A stretch of DNA of 64,000 bases from an uncultured Erythrobacter sp. (GCA_947502815.1 CANNBH010000001.1:1582818-1646817); one strand, 5' to 3'; positions 3,233 through 37,095 are shown, counted from the stretch's first letter. Translations and numbers: made by a program. Notes: a model not told the origin generated them from the letters alone.

Positions 3233-4710
3233 TGGACTTCTCAGCGTCTTTCTTGCTTGTCATGCCAGAATTGGTGCTCACGGCTGCAGGGTTAATCCTG
3301 TTGCTCGCCGCTGCATGGGGCGGAGACAAAGCTGCTCGCGGCATTTCGATTGTCGCCTCGTTGGTCTTCTTTGCGGTTGGTTTGATGCTTGTGCCGTCGC
3401 TCCACACGGGAGTAGATGGACCGGATACGCTAGCGTTTGGCGGACTGCTTAAAATCGATACATTTGCGCTGTTTGCAAAGGCATTGATCTACCTCGCAGC
3501 AATTGCCTGCCTTGTGGTCGCTCCGGCGTTTTTCAACGGCCCTGCTGCTGGTGAAGAGCGTGGGATGCGCGCTGAATATCCAGTGCTGATCCTGTTTGCC
3601 GCGCTTGGCATGAGCATCATGGTTTCGGCCAATGACTTCATGACGCTCTACCTCGGTCTCGAATTGAACAGCCTTGCCTCTTATGTGCTCGCATCGATCC
3701 TGAGAAAGGATCAGCGTTCAGCGGAGGCGGGCCTGAAGTATTTCGTGCTCGGCGCGCTTGCCTCGGGCATCCTGCTTTACGGTATGAGCCTGCTTTACGG
3801 CTTCACCGGCGGAACCGATTTCGCCAGCGTTCGCGCAGGGCTCGACGGGGAATTGAGCATTGGGCAATTGTTTGGCTTGATCTTTGTGCTGTCGGGTCTG
3901 GCGTTCAAAATCGCCGCTGTGCCGTTCCACATGTGGACCCCGGATGTGTACGAAGGTGCGCCGACACCGGTCACGATGTTCTTCTCAACCGCACCCAAAG
4001 TCGCCGCCGTCGCCTTGACCGCGCGCGTGGTGTTTGAAGTGTTCGGCGGCCAAGTCGCCGCGTGGCAACAAATCGTAATGTTCACGGCTCTGGCGTCGAT
4101 TGTGTTCGGCGCATTGGGAGCGATTGGTCAGGACAATCTCAAACGGTTGCTGGCCTATTCCTCGATCAACAACATCGGTTTCATCCTGCTCGGTTTGGCC
4201 GTCGCAAATGCGGCCGGGGCAAGCGCGATGCTGGTCTATCTGTTCATCTATGTTGTGATGAGCCTCGGCAGCTTTACCGCTCTGCTGATGCTGCGCGATG
4301 AAGATGGCGACCTTTATGAAACCTTCGCAGACATTCGCGGCCTTGCGGTGACGCGTCCGGTGATCGCATGGATGCTGCTGGTCCAGATGTTCAGCCTCGC
4401 TGGCATTCCGCCTCTCCTAGGCTTCTACAGCAAGTTTGTGATCTTTCAGGCGACGGTCGAAGCGGGACTTGTTGCATTTGCGGCCATCGCCATCGCAGCC
4501 AGTGTCATCGGTGCGTTTTATTACATCAAATTCATCAAGGTGATGTTCTTTGATGATGCAGTTGATCTGGTGAAAGGCAAAAGCGGCTCGGGGCATTGGG
4601 TGTTGTTGATCCTCACCGGCGTCATCGTATCGCCATTGGGGTATCTGATTACCGGTTCGCTGAAAGATTTGACCGACAAGGCGGCAGCCGCGCTGTTCGT
4701 CGCGGTTTGA
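3232..4710 (+). CDS. nuoN: NADH-quinone oxidoreductase subunit N
   Basis: ND2 motifs (EAGLKYFVLGALASG, FKIAAVPFHMWTPDVYEGAPTPV, KRLLAYSSI); TGATG overlap with nuoM. Confidence 0.97.
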   Translation: MDFSASFLLVMPELVLTAAGLILLLAAAWGGDKAARGISIVASLVFFAVGLMLVPSLHTGVDGPDTLAFGGLLKIDTFALFAKALIYLAAIACLVVAPAFFNGPAAGEERGMRAEYPVLILFAALGMSIMVSANDFMTLYLGLELNSLASYVLASILRKDQRSAEAGLKYFVLGALASGILLYGMSLLYGFTGGTDFASVRAGLDGELSIGQLFGLIFVLSGLAFKIAAVPFHMWTPDVYEGAPTPVTMFFSTAPKVAAVALTARVVFEVFGGQVAAWQQIVMFTALASIVFGALGAIGQDNLKRLLAYSSINNIGFILLGLAVANAAGASAMLVYLFIYVVMSLGSFTALLMLRDEDGDLYETFADIRGLAVTRPVIAWMLLVQMFSLAGIPPLLGFYSKFVIFQATVEAGLVAFAAIAIAASVIGAFYYIKFIKVMFFDDAVDLVKGKSGSGHWVLLILTGVIVSPLGYLITGSLKDLTDKAAAALFVAV

Positions 4711-5432
4711 GCGGCAAAGCCTCTTTCACCTTCGTAGAGGAAACGGGCTCTACCAACGCCGATTTGGCCACTGCCATTCGCAGCGGCGATGCGCCCAGAG
4801 AAGGCCACTGGCTCGTCGCTCTGCGGCAAAACGCAGGCCGGGGCCGTCAGGGCCGCGAATGGTTCGATGGCCACGGCAATTTTATGGGATCGAGCGTGGT
4901 TCAACTGAGCGGCGGCGATCCGCCACCAGCAACGTTAGCGTTTGCAACCGCGCTAGCGGTGGAGCAGGCGATCCTCGCGCTCGTAGGCGATTTTGCGGAC
5001 GTAAAGTTGAAATGGCCCAATGATGTTTTGCTAAACGGCGGCAAAGTGTCGGGGATCTTGCTTGAATTGGTTGGGAAGCGTGTGATCATCGGAGTGGGGG
5101 TCAACCTTGCCAAGGCACCGGAGCTAGCCGATCGCAAGACCTCTGCCTTAAGCGATGTCGTCCCTGCTCCAAGTCCAGAAAGTTTTGCGCAAAGCATTGC
5201 TGCACATTTGCAGAATTCGATTAAGTCGTGGCGCACTCAGACTTTGGAAAGCTTCTTGGATGCCTTCCTCGAGAGGTCAATTCACCGCATTGGCGCCCCG
5301 ATAAAGGTCCATGACAACGGCGGCGAAGTCGCGGAAGGCACCTTTGCAGGGCTTGAACCGTCGGACGGCGCATTGCGTCTACGCTTGGCGGATGGGTCGG
5401 AACGTGTCATTCGCGCAGGTGATATCAGTTAA
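4707..5432 (+). CDS. birA: Biotin-[acetyl-CoA-carboxylase] ligase (group I, no HTH domain)
   Basis: [35 protein letters not shown] motifs. Likely TTG start at 4707 overlapping the nuoN stop (TTGA); the ORF-track start at 4596 lies inside nuoN. Confidence 0.93.
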
Positions 5433-31078: not shown

Positions 31079-31846
31079 ATGATGCCCCTGCGGCCCTATA
31101 TCGTTGGTAACTGGAAGATGCATGGCACACGCGCCATGCTATCCGAGGCGCGCGCAATCGACCGCGCGGCCCAGCGCCACATGAAAGTGGAGGTGGCGAT
31201 TGCGCCGCCTTACACCCTTATCCACCCTGTTCATCGCGAAGCTGAACAGATTGTCGTTGGCGCTCAAGATTGCCACGATCAAGAAAGCGGAGCGCACACG
31301 GGCGAGATTTCAGCCCCAATGTTGGCCGATGCTGGCGCGAAATTCGTCATTTTGGGTCACAGCGAACGGCGTCAGGCCCAGTCAGAAAACGACGCGTTGG
31401 TCCGTGCAAAGGCCGAAGCCGCGCTTTCCGCTGGCTTGCGGGTCATCATGTGCTGCGGCGAGTCTGAAAAATCCCGCGATGCGGGCAAAGCGCTCAGTTT
31501 TGTGAAAAAGCAGCTCAAAGCATCCTTGCCAGAGACGATTGAGGACGCAGCGGAAAAGCTGACTGTCGCGTATGAGCCAATCTGGGCGATCGGCACCGGC
31601 AAGACCGCAACGCCGGAAGACATCGGCGAAATGCACGGTGAAATCCGCAAATTGCTCGTTTCGTTGTTTGGCGAAGAAGACGGTTCAGAAATCCGCATCC
31701 TGTACGGCGGCTCTGTAAAGCCCGAAAATGCTGCGGAAATTTTGGGCGTGGCCGATGTGGGCGGCGCTTTGGTTGGCGGGGCCAGCCTGACCGCCGATAG
31801 CTTTATGGGTATCGCATTGGCTGCGGGTGAAGCCGAAGAGGGCTAA
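31079..31846 (+). CDS. tpiA: Triosephosphate isomerase
   Basis: GNWKM, GHSERR, AYEPIWAIGTG, LYGGSV, LVGGASL motifs. Confidence 0.98.
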   Translation: MMPLRPYIVGNWKMHGTRAMLSEARAIDRAAQRHMKVEVAIAPPYTLIHPVHREAEQIVVGAQDCHDQESGAHTGEISAPMLADAGAKFVILGHSERRQAQSENDALVRAKAEAALSAGLRVIMCCGESEKSRDAGKALSFVKKQLKASLPETIEDAAEKLTVAYEPIWAIGTGKTATPEDIGEMHGEIRKLLVSLFGEEDGSEIRILYGGSVKPENAAEILGVADVGGALVGGASLTADSFMGIALAAGEAEEG

Positions 31847-31940
31847 TGCCTTTTGTGCAACCGATTGATCGGTTCCCTTGCCTCTAAGCCCTTCGATGCC
31901 TAAGTGCGCCTCTCCCAATATGTTCGATTAGAAGAAGTCC

Positions 31941-32339
31941 ATGTCGCTGTTCATTATCCTTACCGTGATCCAGGCCATTGTGGCTGCGGCGCTTGTCGGC
32001 GTTGTTTTGATGCAACGTTCAGAGGGCGGCGGCCTTGGTATTGGCGGCAATCCGTCGGGCGCTTTGGGCGCGCGCGGAGCGGCAGATTTTCTAACGAGGG
32101 CGACAAAATGGCTGGCTGTGGCGTTTGTAGCGCTGTCGATCACCCTTGCGGCGGTCGCGGTGAGCCAATCGAGCGTATCGGAAGTGACGACGGATCTGAA
32201 CCGTGATGTCGAAGCCCCTGTGCCCGGCGATTTACTCAACGCACCAATCAGCGGCGATCTGCTCGACACACCTTCAGATGGCGAGGCGGCACCCGCAACG
32301 GACGCGGCGCCTGCTTCTGACGACGCTCCAAGCGAGTAA
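31941..32339 (+). CDS. secG: Preprotein translocase subunit SecG
   Basis: Two TM helices with VLMQRSEGGGLG and FLTRATK; located between tpiA and pyrG. Confidence 0.93.
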   Translation: MSLFIILTVIQAIVAAALVGVVLMQRSEGGGLGIGGNPSGALGARGAADFLTRATKWLAVAFVALSITLAAVAVSQSSVSEVTTDLNRDVEAPVPGDLLNAPISGDLLDTPSDGEAAPATDAAPASDDAPSE

Positions 32340-32490
32340 TATCCCGCATTTCCATCCACTTGGGTGGCGCATTTGCCGCTCATCTGGGTGATGCGAATTT
32401 TCGAATTTTAAACATGCTTGTGGATTGCGGGTGTTTGCCCGCGCAATTTGCTTGCTCCGAATCCACTCACACCCTTAAGGCTTGGCTCCC

Positions 32491-34125
32491 ATGGCGCGGT
32501 ACATATTTATAACCGGCGGCGTGGTCTCCTCGCTCGGCAAAGGTCTCATGGCAGCAAGTCTCGCTGCGCTCCTACAGGCGCGCGGGTACAAGGTGCGTAT
32601 TCGCAAGTTTGACCCCTACTTGAATGTCGATCCGGGCACGATGAGCCCGTATCAGCATGGTGAGGTCTATGTGACGGATGATGGGGCGGAAACCGACCTC
32701 GATCTGGGCCATTACGAACGTTTCACGGGCGTTTCTGCTCGCCAAAGCGACAACATCACCTCTGGCCGCGTCTATCGCGATATTATCGCGAAAGAACGCC
32801 GGGGCGATTATCTGGGCGCGACCGTTCAGGTAATTCCGCATGTAACCGACGCAATCAAACAGTTTGCGCTGGACGATCAAGAGGACCTCGATTTCATCCT
32901 GTGCGAAATTGGCGGGACTGTGGGCGATATCGAATCGCTGCCGTTTATGGAGGCGATCCGACAGCTTCGGAACGATCTGGAGCCGATGCAAACTCTCAGC
33001 GTGCATGTCACGCTGGTCCCCTACATCGCCGCAGCCGGTGAGCTTAAGACCAAGCCAACGCAGCATTCTGTGCGGGAACTCGCCAGCCTAGGGATCAAGC
33101 CCGATGTGCTGCTGTGCCGCGCAGAGCACCCCATTCCCGATGGCGAACGCCAAAAGATCGCCAATTTCTGCAATGTTCGCAAGGAATCGGTGATCCCCGC
33201 TCTGGATGCGCCATCGATTTATTCTGTGCCGCTGCAATATCACCAAGAGGGCCTCGACGCTGAGGTTTTGCGCGGTTTTGGTATCACCGATGCGCCCGAA
33301 CCTGATTTGAGCGGTTGGGCCGATGTCACCGACCGATACTTTAACCCCGAGGGCGAAGTGACAATCGGTGTTGTCGGCAAATATGTCGGCCTGCCCGATG
33401 CCTATAAGAGCCTGAATGAGGCGTTGGTCCATGGCGGCATGGCCAACCGGGTGAAGGTCAACATCAAATGGATCGACGCCGAAGTCTTTGAAGGCAGCGA
33501 CAGCGACATCGCATCAGCGTTGGAGCCTATGCACGGCATCCTTGTGCCCGGCGGCTTTGGTGAGCGCGGCAGCGAAGGCAAAATTGCCAGTGTTCGTTTC
33601 GCCAGAACGCGCAATGTGCCGTTCTTTGGCATCTGCCTTGGTATGCAAATGGCCTGTGTCGAAAGCGCGCGAGAGGCCGGTTTTGACAAGGCATCGTCCA
33701 CTGAATTTGGCGAAACCGGCGAACCGGTGGTTGGCATTATCAGCGAATGGATGAGCGAAGAGGGCATTCAACAACGCGAAGAGGGCGGTGATCTTGGCGG
33801 GACCATGCGTCTGGGCGCCTATGAAGCGAAACTGTCTGCCAACAGCCACACATCGCGCATCTACGACGGCGCGACCACCATCTCTGAACGCCATCGCCAC
33901 CGCTATGAAGTGAACGCGGCCTATATTGAACCGTTGGAGCGTCAGGGCTTGGTCTTTTCGGGTATGTCACCCGATGGCCTGTTGCCGGAGATTGTGGAGC
34001 GGCCCGATCACCCGTGGTTTGTGGGTGTGCAATTCCATCCAGAATTGAAATCACGGCCCTTTGATCCGCACCCGTTGTTTGCCGGGTTTATATCGGCCGC
34101 GCTCGAACAATCGCGACTGGTTTAA
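32491..34125 (+). CDS. pyrG: CTP synthase
   Basis: [43 protein letters not shown] motifs. Confidence 0.98.
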
Positions 34126-34271
34126 CCAATCTGAAAATCGGTGCTTTTTGCGTGATGGCCGGTTGGGCGATCGCGCTGCGCTTGCGTATTCTATCGGATG
34201 CGTGGCTTTATCAAACCGTATATGTCGTATTCCTACAACTGCGCCAGATACCTCTTGCGTAGATTGGCAAA

Positions 34272-34300
34272 TTGCGGCTTACGAAGGACTGGCCTATAGG
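34272..34300 (+). promoter_or_regulatory. Sigma70-like promoter TTGCGG-N17-TATAGG
   Basis: ttgcgg cttacgaaggactggcc tatagg; it points into a region with no credible ORF that ends in a terminator. Confidence 0.5.
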
Positions 34301-34306
34301 GTTAGG

Positions 34307-34544
34307 TAAGGGTGCCTCTCGCACGACGCGGAGGGACACGGATCGGGGGATCCGCTCTTATGCTGGCCAATGGTGGGGGTGAGAGAGTTCCAAAGTTTCG
34401 CAGCACGTCCCCGTTTTACCGACGGACGATGATCTGCATATGAGCTCGCGCTGGAATTGACCGTCTTCTGCGACCCGGACGGTCAGAACCAGACGAGGCG
34501 GCGAAAGTCGCGGGGGCAGGTCCGCAAGGACCGCCCCCACTTTT
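34307..34544 (+). ncRNA. Candidate structured non-coding RNA (about 240 nt), family unassigned
   Basis: Upstream promoter, at least five hairpins including two GNRA tetraloops (gcggc-GAAA-gtcgc, ggtcc-GCAA-ggacc), and a 3' terminator. No credible CDS. Confidence 0.55.
34512..34544 (+). terminator. Intrinsic terminator
   Basis: gggggc-a-ggtcc-gcaa-ggacc-gccccc followed by actttt. Confidence 0.75.
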
Positions 34545-34567
34545 AATCGATCAATTGTTTTGAATGG

Positions 34568-35083
34568 TTACGCAGCGTTTGCGGATGGATCATCCGATGC
34601 AGCGCCTTCATCGCCAGCGCCGCTATCCGGAACGGCCGTCAAAGTGGCTGATCCTGCAGAACCTGCGTTGACCGCGATCTTTTTGGGCTTCATCGCATCG
34701 GGCACTTCGCGCACCAGATCGACGACCAACAAGCCATCGGCCAAATCGGCATTTGCAACACGGACATAATCCGCCAGTTCAAAGCGGCGCTCAAAGCCGC
34801 GATTGGCGATGCCGACATGCAGCAATTCTGAACCATCATCGATATCTTCGCGCTTTTTGCCTTGCACAGTCAGCAGGTTCGCTTGCGCCGTGATATCAAT
34901 ATCCTGCGGGCGAAAACCAGCAACGGCCAGCACGATACGGTAATTGTCTTCACCGCTTTTGGAAATGTTGAAAGGGGGGTAATTGTCACCCGAATTCGCG
35001 CGCGCCTGACTTTCGAGCATGTCGAAAAGACGGTCAAAACCAACGGTGCTGCGGCGATAGGGTGTAAAATCAAGACGTGACAT
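34568..35083 (-). CDS. ibpA: Small heat-shock protein (Hsp20, IbpA class)
   Basis: VGFDRLFD, NYPPFNI, LAVAGF, GIANRGFERRFELAD, GLL motifs. Confidence 0.94.
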   Translation of the reverse strand: MSRLDFTPYRRSTVGFDRLFDMLESQARANSGDNYPPFNISKSGEDNYRIVLAVAGFRPQDIDITAQANLLTVQGKKREDIDDGSELLHVGIANRGFERRFELADYVRVANADLADGLLVVDLVREVPDAMKPKKIAVNAGSAGSATLTAVPDSGAGDEGAASDDPSANAA

Positions 35084-35198
35084 AGTTTCAAATCCTCTTG
35101 TGTGAGCAATCTGTGTTCATTTGCCGGACCTGCCTCATGCAGCGTCCAGCGGTGTTGCCGAGTATGTGTTCCCCAAGACTGGCGGAACGGGCCGGCAC
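35084..35198 (-). promoter_or_regulatory. ROSE-like RNA thermometer in the ibpA 5' UTR
   Basis: Three-hairpin UTR. The last hairpin AUU[G]CUC-acacaa-GAGGAU pairs the U(U/C)GCU motif, with its bulged G, against the Shine-Dalgarno sequence. Confidence 0.8.
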
Positions 35199-35203
35199 AC
35201 ATT

Positions 35204-35231
35204 AGTTAGGGTTGGCAATTTGGCTTTCAAG
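35204..35231 (-). promoter_or_regulatory. RpoH (sigma32)-type promoter
   Basis: Minus strand CTTGAA-N14-CCCTAACT, matching the CTTGAA-N13/14-CCCCATNT consensus, upstream of an sHSP gene. Confidence 0.75.
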
Positions 35232-35291
35232 AGGTTCGGTCGTGCAGAATGCGTGCTGTGACAGGGCCAAGATGAGGAATAAGGGACAACC

Positions 35292-35549
35292 ATGCCTACG
35301 ATCGATATCTACACCAAATTCACCTGCCCGTTTTGTGTTCGGGCAAAGCGGCTTTTGTCCGCAAAGGGCGCGGAATTTAACGAGTTCGACATCTCGATGG
35401 GCGGACCAAAGCGAGATGAAATGGTCGCCCGTGCACCGCAGGCGCGCACCGTGCCGCAGATATTCATTGGTGATATCCATGTGGGCGGTTCGGATGAATT
35501 GGCCGCGCTAGACGCTTCGGGCCAGCTTGACGCACTGCTGGCAGGTTAA
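35292..35549 (+). CDS. grxC: Glutaredoxin 3
   Basis: CPFC active site, TVPQIF and GGSD motifs. Confidence 0.95.
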   Translation: MPTIDIYTKFTCPFCVRAKRLLSAKGAEFNEFDISMGGPKRDEMVARAPQARTVPQIFIGDIHVGGSDELAALDASGQLDALLAG

Positions 35550-35558
35550 GGCTTTCTG

Positions 35559-36386
35559 ATGCCCAAGATCGCTGTTCTTCAGATGAATTCGGGCATCGAT
35601 CCTGAGGAAAACCTCGCTGCGATCCAATCCGCGGTCAAGGATGCGGCCGAGGCTGGCGCAAAGATCCTGTTCACTCCTGAGATGGCTGCCTTGCTCGACC
35701 GCGACCGGAAACGCGCGAACGCGCATCTGAGTGCCGGATATTACGGCGGGGTGCTCAGGTCGCTCGCTTTGCTAGCAGAGAGCTACAAGATCGATATCGC
35801 GCTTGGCTCCTTGCCCATGCCCGTAACAGATACGCTGAATGCCAATCGAGCCTACTATTTCTCGCGTGCGAATTTAGGGCAAGTGCCCCCTGTCACCTAC
35901 GACAAGATGCATATGTTCGACGTCGAGCTTTCATCCGGTGAGAAATGGCGTGAGAGCAGCGCCTATCAAGCGGGCGAGGACGTCGTCACCGTCGACGACA
36001 CGCCACTCGGCCGCCTTGGTCTGGCGATTTGTTACGATATGCGCTTCCCCGCTTTGTTTGAGGAATTGGGCAGGCGGAAATGCGATGCGATTTCCATTCC
36101 CGCCGCATTCACCGTTCCCACCGGCAAAGCGCATTGGCATGTCTTGCTTCGCGCCCGCGCAATCGAAGCGAGCGCGTTTGTGATCGCGGCGGCGCAAGTC
36201 GGCAAACACGCAGATGGCCGCACCACATACGGCCATTCACTGGTGGTGGACCCATGGGGTGACGTGCTGCTGGACATGGGCGGCGAATCGCCGGGCATCG
36301 GATATTGCGACATTGACCTGGCACGCATCGCCGAGGTGCGATCTCAGGTGCCCAGCCTTGCCAACCGGCGCGAAATCGCCAATTAG
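35559..36386 (+). CDS. Carbon-nitrogen hydrolase (Nit1/deaminated glutathione amidase-like)
   Basis: Catalytic triad motifs FTPE, YDKMHMFDV, ICYDMRFP; HWHVLLRARAIE; TYGHS. Confidence 0.9.
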   Translation: MPKIAVLQMNSGIDPEENLAAIQSAVKDAAEAGAKILFTPEMAALLDRDRKRANAHLSAGYYGGVLRSLALLAESYKIDIALGSLPMPVTDTLNANRAYYFSRANLGQVPPVTYDKMHMFDVELSSGEKWRESSAYQAGEDVVTVDDTPLGRLGLAICYDMRFPALFEELGRRKCDAISIPAAFTVPTGKAHWHVLLRARAIEASAFVIAAAQVGKHADGRTTYGHSLVVDPWGDVLLDMGGESPGIGYCDIDLARIAEVRSQVPSLANRREIAN

Positions 36387-36392
36387 CGCAGC

Positions 36393-36926
36393 ATGATAGT
36401 TTTTGACCTCCAATGTGATGTTGGCCACCGCTTTGAAGGGTGGTTTGGTTCCTCGTCCGATTACGAAGGCCAATCAGCGCGCGGCCTTGTGACGTGCCCT
36501 GAATGCGGTTCGGAAAAGGTGAGCAAAGCGGTGATGGCTCCTGCGGTAGGCGCAAAGGGGAACACGCGGTCCGAAACCGCGCCCGTTGCCCAACAGGCCA
36601 ATGATCCGGCGTCGGGTAGCGCGGTCGCCGCGCAGGAACCCTTTACACCGCCCGCCGATGCAAAGCCGGTTTCCAACACGCCTATGCCAGCAGAGGTGCA
36701 AAAGGCTCTAAAGGCGCTGGCCACGGCTCAACAAAAAGCTTTGGAAAAAAGCACATGGGTGGGCAAAGATTTCGCCGCCCAATCGCGCGCCATGCATTAC
36801 GGCGAAAGCGACGAAAAACCGATCCACGGTCAAGCAAGTTTGGAAGAGGCGCAATCGCTGGCCGAAGAAGGCGTGCAAGTGGCCGCTTTGCCATTTCCCG
36901 TTGCGCCGCCTGACAAACTGAATTGA
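36393..36926 (+). CDS. DUF1178 family protein (N-terminal zinc-ribbon-like)
   Basis: MIVFDLQCDVGHRFEGWFGSS...CPECGS...KAVMAP and VGKDFA...MHYGE pattern. Confidence 0.85.
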   Translation: MIVFDLQCDVGHRFEGWFGSSSDYEGQSARGLVTCPECGSEKVSKAVMAPAVGAKGNTRSETAPVAQQANDPASGSAVAAQEPFTPPADAKPVSNTPMPAEVQKALKALATAQQKALEKSTWVGKDFAAQSRAMHYGESDEKPIHGQASLEEAQSLAEEGVQVAALPFPVAPPDKLN

Positions 36927-36959
36927 TTGGTTCGCCTGCGGTGCTATTGGGACTGTGTC

Positions 36960-37033
36960 GTCCTCGTAGCTCAGGTGGATAGAGCATCGGATTCCTAATC
37001 CGGAGGCCACAGGTTCGAATCCTGTCGAGGACA
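36960..37033 (+). tRNA. tRNA-Arg (anticodon CCT); CCA end not encoded
   Basis: Cloverleaf: acceptor gtcctcg/cgaggac, D-arm gctc/gagc, anticodon stem tcgga/tccgg with loop ttCCTaa, T-arm acagg-ttcgaat-cctgt. Confidence 0.97.
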
Positions 37034-37095
37034 CGTTTTGCGCCTATCTAGTGCAGAGCGTTGAGGCCGCTAAGCGAGCGCAATCACACAAACAC

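Follow-up and report, generated by a model that had tools for sequence, protein, structure and literature searches.

What is encoded between pyrG and the convergent small heat-shock protein gene hsp20 in the genome of an uncultured Erythrobacter sp.? We analysed a 64,000-nt stretch of DNA from this organism (GCA_947502815.1 CANNBH010000001.1:1582818-1646817, hereafter the window), in which the two genes are separated by a gap of 442 nt. An earlier note, made by reading the sequence alone, had placed a novel structured non-coding RNA of about 240 nt here, with a promoter, a series of hairpins and a terminator of its own. Our analysis upholds that proposal. The element is a real small non-coding RNA gene on the + strand, ending at a conserved GC-rich hairpin; it has no match in Rfam, its conservation is backed by covariation, and the orthologous region of Qipengyuania citrea is transcribed. 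The part under selection across the order Sphingomonadales is the 3' 100 nt, which we call the core. All of the hairpins described previously are present in the window sequence where they had been placed, and the + strand between 34300 and 34548 folds with a minimum free energy of -115 kcal/mol (z = -4.09), none of 200 dinucleotide shuffles folding as well. The - strand of the same interval gives z = -2.1. The region contains open reading frames of 43 and 60 amino acids, both rich in Arg and Gly and neither matching a Pfam family; a small protein or type I toxin was rejected on these grounds and because the frames are broken by indels in relatives.

How widely is this RNA shared? We compared 80 alphaproteobacterial pyrG loci. 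The twelve from the closest Sphingomonadales have in common a stretch of approximately 105 nt 3' of pyrG, which corresponds to the core in the window. These twelve belong to Erythrobacter, Parerythrobacter, Qipengyuania, Croceibacterium, Parablastomonas, Novosphingobium and metagenome-assembled genomes (MAGs). A covariance model (R1) built from 13 sequences scored the window at 90 bits; in about 30 related loci it matched once each, at 65-100 bits. The loci with a match are the window, L001-L012, L201-L208, which were reached via close Hsp20 homologues, and at least 10 metagenome loci among the 120 stretches listed by a pattern scan of metagenomes; L201-L204 were identified by the model search and L205-L208 by alignment. 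Carriers are mostly Erythrobacteraceae, together with Novosphingobium, Parablastomonas and MAGs, and wherever the flanking DNA was long enough, the RNA stands after pyrG and before a convergent hsp20. We found no second copy of the RNA in the 64-kb window and none on plasmids. At the pyrG position it is absent from Sphingomonas, Sphingobium, Sphingomicrobium and all the other alphaproteobacterial loci compared, and in one locus, L022, pyrG and hsp20 adjoin with just a plain terminator between them and no RNA.

The core is built from hairpins arranged back-to-back, with no spacers or almost none. A long irregular hairpin (P0 and P1) is followed by P2 and then by the terminator hairpin P3 (Table 1). 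Across the family P0 has 4-13 bp and starts at a CUYG motif in most members, P1 has about 9 bp, P2 has 5-7 bp and P3 has 11-12 bp followed by a U-rich tail. For the covariation count we used 21 sequences aligned with MAFFT, without fitting the alignment to the structure. Standard pairs occupy 95.4% of the cells, compared with 85.4% after column shuffling and 38-52% when the pairing partners are slid, and compensatory changes occur at 16 of the 26 pairs, a level reached by none of 500 shuffles. Within P1 such changes affect five of nine pairs (92% of cells paired) and within P3 nine of 11 (97.8% of cells paired). In P2, columns 63 and 81 hold a G-C pair in 17 sequences and a U-A pair in the other four. 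P0 could not be counted on the MAFFT alignment and was assessed from individual folds; it forms in all 21 of these, using unrelated sequences such as CUCGCUGG/CCAGCGAG, CUUGUCCGG/CCGGACAAG and GCCGGUCCUCGU/AUGAGGACCGGC. Conservation and covariation in relatives, which had been suggested as a check on the candidate, are strong and back the three 3' hairpins.

The same alignment points to the strand. P2 contains a G.U pair in 17 of the 21 sequences, for which the opposite strand would have a C.A mismatch, and overall there are 60 G.U cells versus 7 A.C cells. The consensus energy is -46.2 kcal/mol in the forward direction and -31.6 kcal/mol in reverse, with 19 of the 21 sequences more stable forward. 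Scores from the covariance model are 80-100 bits for the + strand and do not exceed 23 bits for the - strand, and the U-rich tail 3' of P3 exists on the + strand only, in most relatives. We regard the assignment of the structured RNA to the + strand as settled, on the basis of structure rather than reads. P3 has the make-up of an intrinsic terminator, combining a covarying GC hairpin with a U-rich tail in most members; the window has only four U in this tract, and the tract is poor in L008 and L011. The RNA ends 24 nt short of the hsp20 stop codon, and its 3' end converges on the small heat-shock protein gene.

Table 1. Positions of the RNA, its parts and neighbouring features in the window.
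Feature	Position	Strand	Description
Conserved core	34445-34544	+	P0+P1, P2, P3 and U-tail; defined by covariance model and covariation
P0+P1	34445-34497	+	Long irregular hairpin; P0 pairs CUCG/CUGG (34445-34454) with CCAG/CGAG (34489-34497)
P1	34457-34466 with 34477-34486	+	tgaccgtc..gacggtca at 34458-34485
P1 apical loop	34467-34478	+	GCGACCCGG (34470-34478) invariant; proposed seed/recognition element
P2	34498-34511	+	GCGGC-GAAA-GUCGC; 96% of cells paired
P3	34512-34544	+	GC-rich, GCAA-capped terminator; hairpin 34512-34538, tail ACUUUU
Lineage-variable 5' domain	34306-34444	+	Conserved 5' GUAAGGG, then hairpins Ha, Hb and Hd
Ha	34315-34334	+	CGC/GCG core, outer pairs vary
Hb	34339-34354	+	GGAUC/GAUCC changed to GGGUU/AACCU
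Hd	~34400-34437	+	GCAGC...GCUGC around an inner hairpin; the inner sequence differs per species
Imperfect hairpin of the earlier note	34313-34339	+	gtgcctctc..gagggacac
Second hairpin of the earlier note	34339-34354	+	cggatc-gggg-gatccg
Promoter candidate of the earlier note	34272-34300	+	TTGCGG (34272-34277)-N17-TATAGG (34295-34300); predicted start ~34306
Alternative promoter candidate	34254-34283	+	CTTGCG-N18-CTTACG; 18 nt upstream of the previous entry, better conserved
Upstream motif	34223-34239		TGTCG-N6-TACAA(G/C), fixed 14 nt before the CTTGC box; window, L001, L002, L004, L005, L112, L201-L208
pyrG	32482-34125	+	Matches CTP_synth_N plus GATase
hsp20	34568-35083	-	Hsp20-family small heat-shock protein; convergent with the RNA
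Candidate target site in hsp20	34754-34765	-	GUCCGUGUUGCA; codons V107-A110, complementary to loop UGCGACCCGGAC
tRNA-Arg(CCT)	36960-37034		Sole Rfam match in the window

Is the RNA made in cells? A transcript had been named as a check on the proposal, and the orthologous intergenic region of Q. citrea (L006) is represented in unstranded contigs from at least 14 marine metatranscriptome runs belonging to several studies. We aligned sixteen runs to L006, 14 of them labelled RNA (one with a query) and two of unknown type, all as assembled contigs. The Q. citrea core is covered in all 16, and in at least eight of these it is covered without the adjacent 3' end of pyrG; in X26 the depth is 22 over the core versus 2.5 over pyrG. 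Contigs continuous with the pyrG 3' end occur in X18, X20 and X24, and in X31 and X32, the two runs of unknown type. In L006 coordinates, where the core starts at 4835 and the P3 stem occupies 4906-4930, contig starts fall into two classes, at 4681-4714 or 4765-4800. Contigs on the RNA side often stop at 4880-4948 and those on the hsp20 side start at 4923-4938, and one contig, 4777-4935, ends 5 nt past the P3 stem. These ends have to be read with the caveat that GC-rich hairpins can break assemblies; they fit two convergent transcripts that meet at P3 and an RNA with a longer and a shorter form. No RNA run contained the sequence of the window organism itself; the runs that match it (X1-X16) look like DNA assemblies, with some contigs up to 350 kb, and display strain variation only, including one relative in which the 5' part is replaced and the core kept. 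No RNA runs with the sequence of E. ani (L002) were found.

How much of the proposed 240 nt belongs to the conserved RNA? Upstream of the core lies a 5' domain that varies between lineages, which we studied in a whole-intergenic alignment of six close relatives (L201, L202, L205, L206, L207 and L208). A start of the form (R)UAAGGG, at 34306-34312 in the window, is common to the close relatives, and most of them (L201, L202, L205, L206 and L207) preserve the hairpins Ha, Hb and Hd by compensatory changes. The inner helix of Hd, for instance, is found as CGUCC/GGACG, CCGCC/GGUGG, CAGGGU/ACCCUG and AGCCGC/GCGGCU. The domain is non-coding, since its indels are not multiples of three. When folded alone it gives mixed z-scores, ranging from -3.75 to +0.4. 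It could not be detected by sequence beyond the closest relatives and is replaced altogether outside the clade. The spacer between pyrG and the core is long and variable, reaching 375 nt, and because it measures only 78-116 nt in L012, L094 and L003, a length of about 240 nt is at best that of this clade. A multi-hairpin RNA of this size is therefore reasonable for the close relatives of the window; across the order only the 3' 100 nt are conserved. The conformational switch that had also been suggested, in which UGCCUCUCGC in the 5' segment pairs with the left arm of the terminator, is not supported on comparison, as the 5' segment is changed even in the nearest relatives (UACCUACGC, UUCAUUCGC) with the terminator arm invariant. 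Midway through the domain a purine-rich segment has been conserved, GGGGGUGAGAGAG (34375-34388; GGGGYAANAGAG in relatives), which seems unpaired in several folds; no start codon follows it.

Where transcription would begin is less clearly marked. Of the promoter read previously as TTGCGG-N17-TATAGG, both hexamers are present in the window and the -10 element, CTATAG at 34294-34299, is kept in close relatives; the -35 element is not, reading ATGCGG there. CTAYAG together with the downstream (R)UAAGGG is conserved in L201-L208 and recognisable in L001. Simple sigma-70 and terminator scans of the region reported nothing, because the hexamers match the consensus at 7 of 12 positions and the U-run has only 4 U. 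The alternative pair CTTGCG-N18-CTTACG does not pass the sigma-70 scan either. Its -35-like CTTGC box is conserved in the window, L001, L002, L004, L005, L112 and L201-L208, and k-mer counts recover it, as a loose box at no fixed distance, in most of the family's intergenic regions. The motif TGTCG-N6-TACAA(G/C), which precedes the box in the same set of loci, may be a site for a transcription factor controlling the RNA. An inverted repeat runs from TACAAG to CTTGC in L002 and L004. A second promoter-like pair, CTTGCGTA..CTTTATC, is located at 34181-34212 and conserved in close relatives, its -35 octamer being the same as the box at 34254; it may reflect tandem promoters or a separate short transcript. 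The sigma-EcfG motif GGAAC-N16-17-CGTT is absent from all 22 intergenic regions, as is the canonical RpoH pattern CTTGAA-N14-18-CC(C/T)ATAT upstream of the RNA in the same 22. The likeness to RpoH promoters is partial only (CTTGCG..CTTACGA compared with CTTGAA..CTAACTA). By these patterns the RNA belongs neither to the sigma-EcfG-dependent, GsrN-like sRNAs nor to the RpoH heat-shock regulon.

What, then, might the RNA recognise? The best candidate for a recognition element is the apical loop of P1, where the nine positions of GCGACCCGG show no variation among the 21 aligned sequences, against covarying stems around them. The last two G of this motif fall in the closing pairs of P1, and the motif sits within the loop region UCUGCGACCCGG, which is the sole long unpaired segment of the core. 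In the window GCGAC in the loop could also form a pseudoknot with GUCGC, the 3' strand of P2; we rejected this, as the pairing is lost in L007, L008 and L012. Since the compensatory changes in these three loci keep P2 and not the pairing with the loop, P2 is the conserved alternative. In three members the 5' domain of the same RNA holds a perfect complement of 8-11 nt to the loop, namely L010 (4798-4810, GCCGGGUCGCAAC, 11 bp), L114 (approximately 4458-4467 on the RNA strand, 8 bp) and L122 (approximately 3185, 8 bp). In these RNAs the complement could mask the seed within the same molecule.

On balance we think it slightly more likely than not that the RNA is a regulator that acts in trans by base pairing and uses the invariant loop as its seed. 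This reading draws on the combination of an invariant exposed loop on a covarying scaffold, a single copy per genome and a terminator, as in the Caulobacter crescentus sRNA (small RNA) GsrN. Contact with one mRNA or several would begin at the P1 loop, by loop-to-single-strand or kissing pairing. The structured and fast-evolving 5' domain would probably modulate stability or processing, and may be removed, releasing the core. Several points weigh against this proposal. No target was identified. Loop complements within nt -200 to +60 of hsp20 and pyrG, in 15-20 species, give z-scores that scatter around 0, and the 64-kb window holds four loop complements at up to 3 mismatches, one of them the locus itself, against 7.6 expected. 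A site in the 5' domain that could mask the loop is absent in members other than L010, L114 and L122. The core has almost no single-stranded A/U-rich stretch and the U-tail is short or broken in several species, which makes the RNA atypical of Hfq-dependent sRNAs. A promoter consensus valid for the whole family could not be derived. Evidence at the RNA level is confined to one relative and to unstranded assembled contigs, and in 3-4 runs these contigs run on from pyrG, so that part of the RNA may arise by read-through.

This last observation leads to the strongest of the alternatives, which we take seriously while thinking it improbable, namely that the RNA is an sRNA derived from the 3' untranslated region (3'UTR) of pyrG. 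It would arise by read-through and endonuclease cleavage just 5' of P0, and would either work in trans or govern how stable the pyrG mRNA is, a scheme compatible with a seed in the loop. Several 3'UTR-derived sRNAs share the terminator of the upstream mRNA, including CpxQ and DapZ in enterobacteria and SorX in Rhodobacter. The new RNA resembles them in lying on the same strand directly 3' of a coding gene, which is always pyrG, in having a conserved 3' end with a terminator, and in showing some run-on transcripts, the contigs of X18, X20 and X24 that span the pyrG 3' end into the core. The short distance from the pyrG stop to the core in L012, L094 and L003 would also suit such an origin, as would the lack of a convincing terminator straight after pyrG in the window, and the Q. 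citrea contig starts at 4765-4800, 35-70 nt before the core, resemble those of a processed form. It differs from them in its pyrG-independent coverage in most runs, where coverage of the core is deeper and does not take in the neighbouring 3' end of pyrG, in a spacer of up to 375 nt, and in the promoter-like elements inside the intergenic region, where the CTTGC box and its upstream motif are conserved. Terminator-like hairpins stand right after pyrG in L002, L004 and L005, and the direct adjacency of pyrG and hsp20 in L022, without the RNA, is a further point against a pyrG origin.

The neighbour on the other side raises the question of whether the RNA regulates hsp20, which we consider doubtful. 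The regulation might operate in trans, with the loop pairing at codons 107-110 so that the mRNA is degraded or protected, or in cis, with P3 as a two-way terminator and the RNA antisense to read-through from hsp20. The convergent arrangement of the two genes is invariant, and hsp20 has no U-tract of its own after P3. In addition, a recurrent site in the hsp20 coding sequence emerged from a scan of all the collected loci. In the window this site, GUCCGUGUUGCA, pairs with the loop UGCGACCCGGAC at 11 of 12 positions, with one G.U pair and one mismatch. Across the 27 loci tested the pairing extends to 8-12 of 12 positions, except in L012 (7), and loci with CGG as the Arg codon have 10-12 contiguous pairs. 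Averaged over 22 species the score is 9.86 of 12, a value that shuffled loops matched or exceeded anywhere in hsp20 in 21 of 1000 trials, a p of about 0.02 that is uncorrected for the other genes examined. Set against this, pairing requires a G at the third position of the Arg codon, and only about one third of the species have it, despite the invariant loop. Even in loci that lack the RNA, hsp20 scores 7-9 of 12, an effect of the conserved VRV motif and of GC-rich codons. The RpoH promoter is clear at hsp20 in all species, yet no canonical RpoH motif lies upstream of the RNA. We treat codons 107-110 as a weak lead to a target, one that would probably not hold. A fixed regulatory pair of RNA and hsp20, with the loop docking on these codons and the two genes sharing a two-way terminator, seems similarly questionable. 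If true, it would mean that a lineage-specific sRNA tunes the output of a small heat-shock protein post-transcriptionally through a kissing loop in the coding sequence and not at the ribosome binding site. Read on the + strand, the hsp20 site is TGCAACACGGAC, which agrees with the loop TGCGACCCGGAC (34469-34480) at 10 of 12 positions, with unlike flanks; this likeness could be chance or a trace of the loop's origin.

Could the invariant loop instead be read by a protein? An RNA in which the loop on its long stem forms a sequence-specific binding site, and which sequesters, scaffolds or delivers its protein partner, would explain why nine invariant nucleotides are carried on a covarying, rigid and almost fully paired scaffold. 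It would also be in keeping with the fact that no conserved RNA complement was found and with the scarcity of single-stranded sequence for chaperone-assisted pairing. Yet each RNA carries one copy of the motif, unlike sponge RNAs with their repeats, and no candidate protein gene is linked to the locus, where the neighbours are housekeeping genes. We judge protein binding to be unlikely, slightly more so than a role at hsp20. Finally, the idea that the conserved structure acts on the - strand as an element of the hsp20 3'UTR is scarcely credible; unstranded contigs do run from hsp20 through the terminator into the core (X17, X19, X22, X23 and X26), but the G.U count, the consensus energy, the model scores and the U-rich tail described above all favour the + strand, and contigs break at P3 with a different depth on each side in at least four runs (X18, X20, X28 and X29).

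Does the RNA belong to a known family? At the gathering score, Rfam 15 returned nothing at the position of the RNA in the window and only tRNAs in 14 related loci. Below the threshold, at E up to 10, the best matches between 34100 and 34620 reached 11-15 bits, against cut-offs of 35-137. A search with ARAGORN for transfer-messenger RNA (tmRNA), including the two-piece alphaproteobacterial form, found only tRNA-Arg in the window. These searches agree with the earlier note that the RNA lacks the hallmarks of tmRNA, RNase P RNA and signal recognition particle (SRP) RNA, those of 6S RNA being absent too, and the comparison with Rfam that it had recommended, 6S included, yielded no family match in the window or the 14 related loci. 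In the literature searched we also found no account of an sRNA at the pyrG-hsp20 locus in Sphingomonadales. With the alphaproteobacterial sRNAs in Rfam (AbcR/alpha-r15 and alpha-r7/9/14) and with 6S, tmRNA, RNase P and SRP RNAs, the new RNA shares an intergenic position, a length of 100-250 nt, successive hairpins and a terminator; it differs in that it matches none of them even at E up to 10. We conclude that it represents a new sRNA family, absent from databases, of the ordinary terminator-ended type.

The closest functional parallel may be GsrN, the general-stress sRNA of C. crescentus, in which a conserved exposed loop is the target-recognition site and which is cut by an endonuclease into isoforms (PMC5869019). 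The paper on GsrN itself reports that a gsrN-like gene was not found in Erythrobacter litoralis (PMC5869019). Both are alphaproteobacterial sRNAs whose best-conserved element is an exposed hairpin loop, the recognition role being a proposal for the new RNA, and the two classes of 5' ends in the Q. citrea contigs hint at similar processing. However, the two RNAs have no sequence or Rfam relationship, and the new RNA lacks a sigma-EcfG promoter in the 22 intergenic regions. It lies away from the general-stress (phyR/nepR/ecfG) locus, its neighbours being secG, pyrG, hsp20 and genes for a glutaredoxin and a CN-hydrolase, and its loop is GCGACCCGG whereas that of GsrN is C-rich. A modular architecture has been described for an sRNA of Vibrio cholerae with a variable 5' module inside an open reading frame and a conserved 3' region (PMC13376802). 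The likeness lies in this layout, a 5' module that changes fast ahead of a 3' region that does not; neither the organism nor the sequence is related, and in the new RNA the candidate seed falls in the conserved 3' module.

A well-defined sRNA family would be of some value in this order, with a structure backed by covariation, a candidate seed and evidence of expression in the ocean. The Sphingomonadales include the abundant marine Erythrobacteraceae as well as pollutant degraders, and to our knowledge almost no sRNAs have been characterised in them. The fixed genomic address means that the RNA can be annotated in genomes at once, and the family is probably ready for Rfam. Its layout, in which a structured 5' domain evolves fast beside a conserved 3' core, should be useful for studying sRNA evolution. 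Without a target or phenotype the RNA remains an orphan sRNA family rather than a new principle.

The genes around the RNA identify the source of the window as an Erythrobacter-like member of the Sphingomonadales. Its CTP synthase has 92% identity with that of Erythrobacter sp. MTPC3 and its Hsp20 has 89% identity with that of Erythrobacter sp. Alg231-14. Upstream of hsp20 (35084-35230, - strand) we observed a textbook alphaproteobacterial RpoH-type promoter, CTCTTGAAAGC-N-CCCTAACTAAT, which is kept in all relatives. The 5' untranslated region (5'UTR) of hsp20 is also conserved and ends in a hairpin that pairs AUUGCUC with the Shine-Dalgarno sequence GAGGAU. From its sequence this hairpin looks like an RNA thermometer of the ROSE type, although the Rfam ROSE models gave no match to the hsp20 5'UTR even at E up to 10. 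The gene order over 31079-37034 of the window is the same in L201-L208, running tpiA, secG, pyrG, the RNA, the convergent hsp20, the glutaredoxin gene, CN-hydrolase, DUF1178 and tRNA-Arg(CCT).

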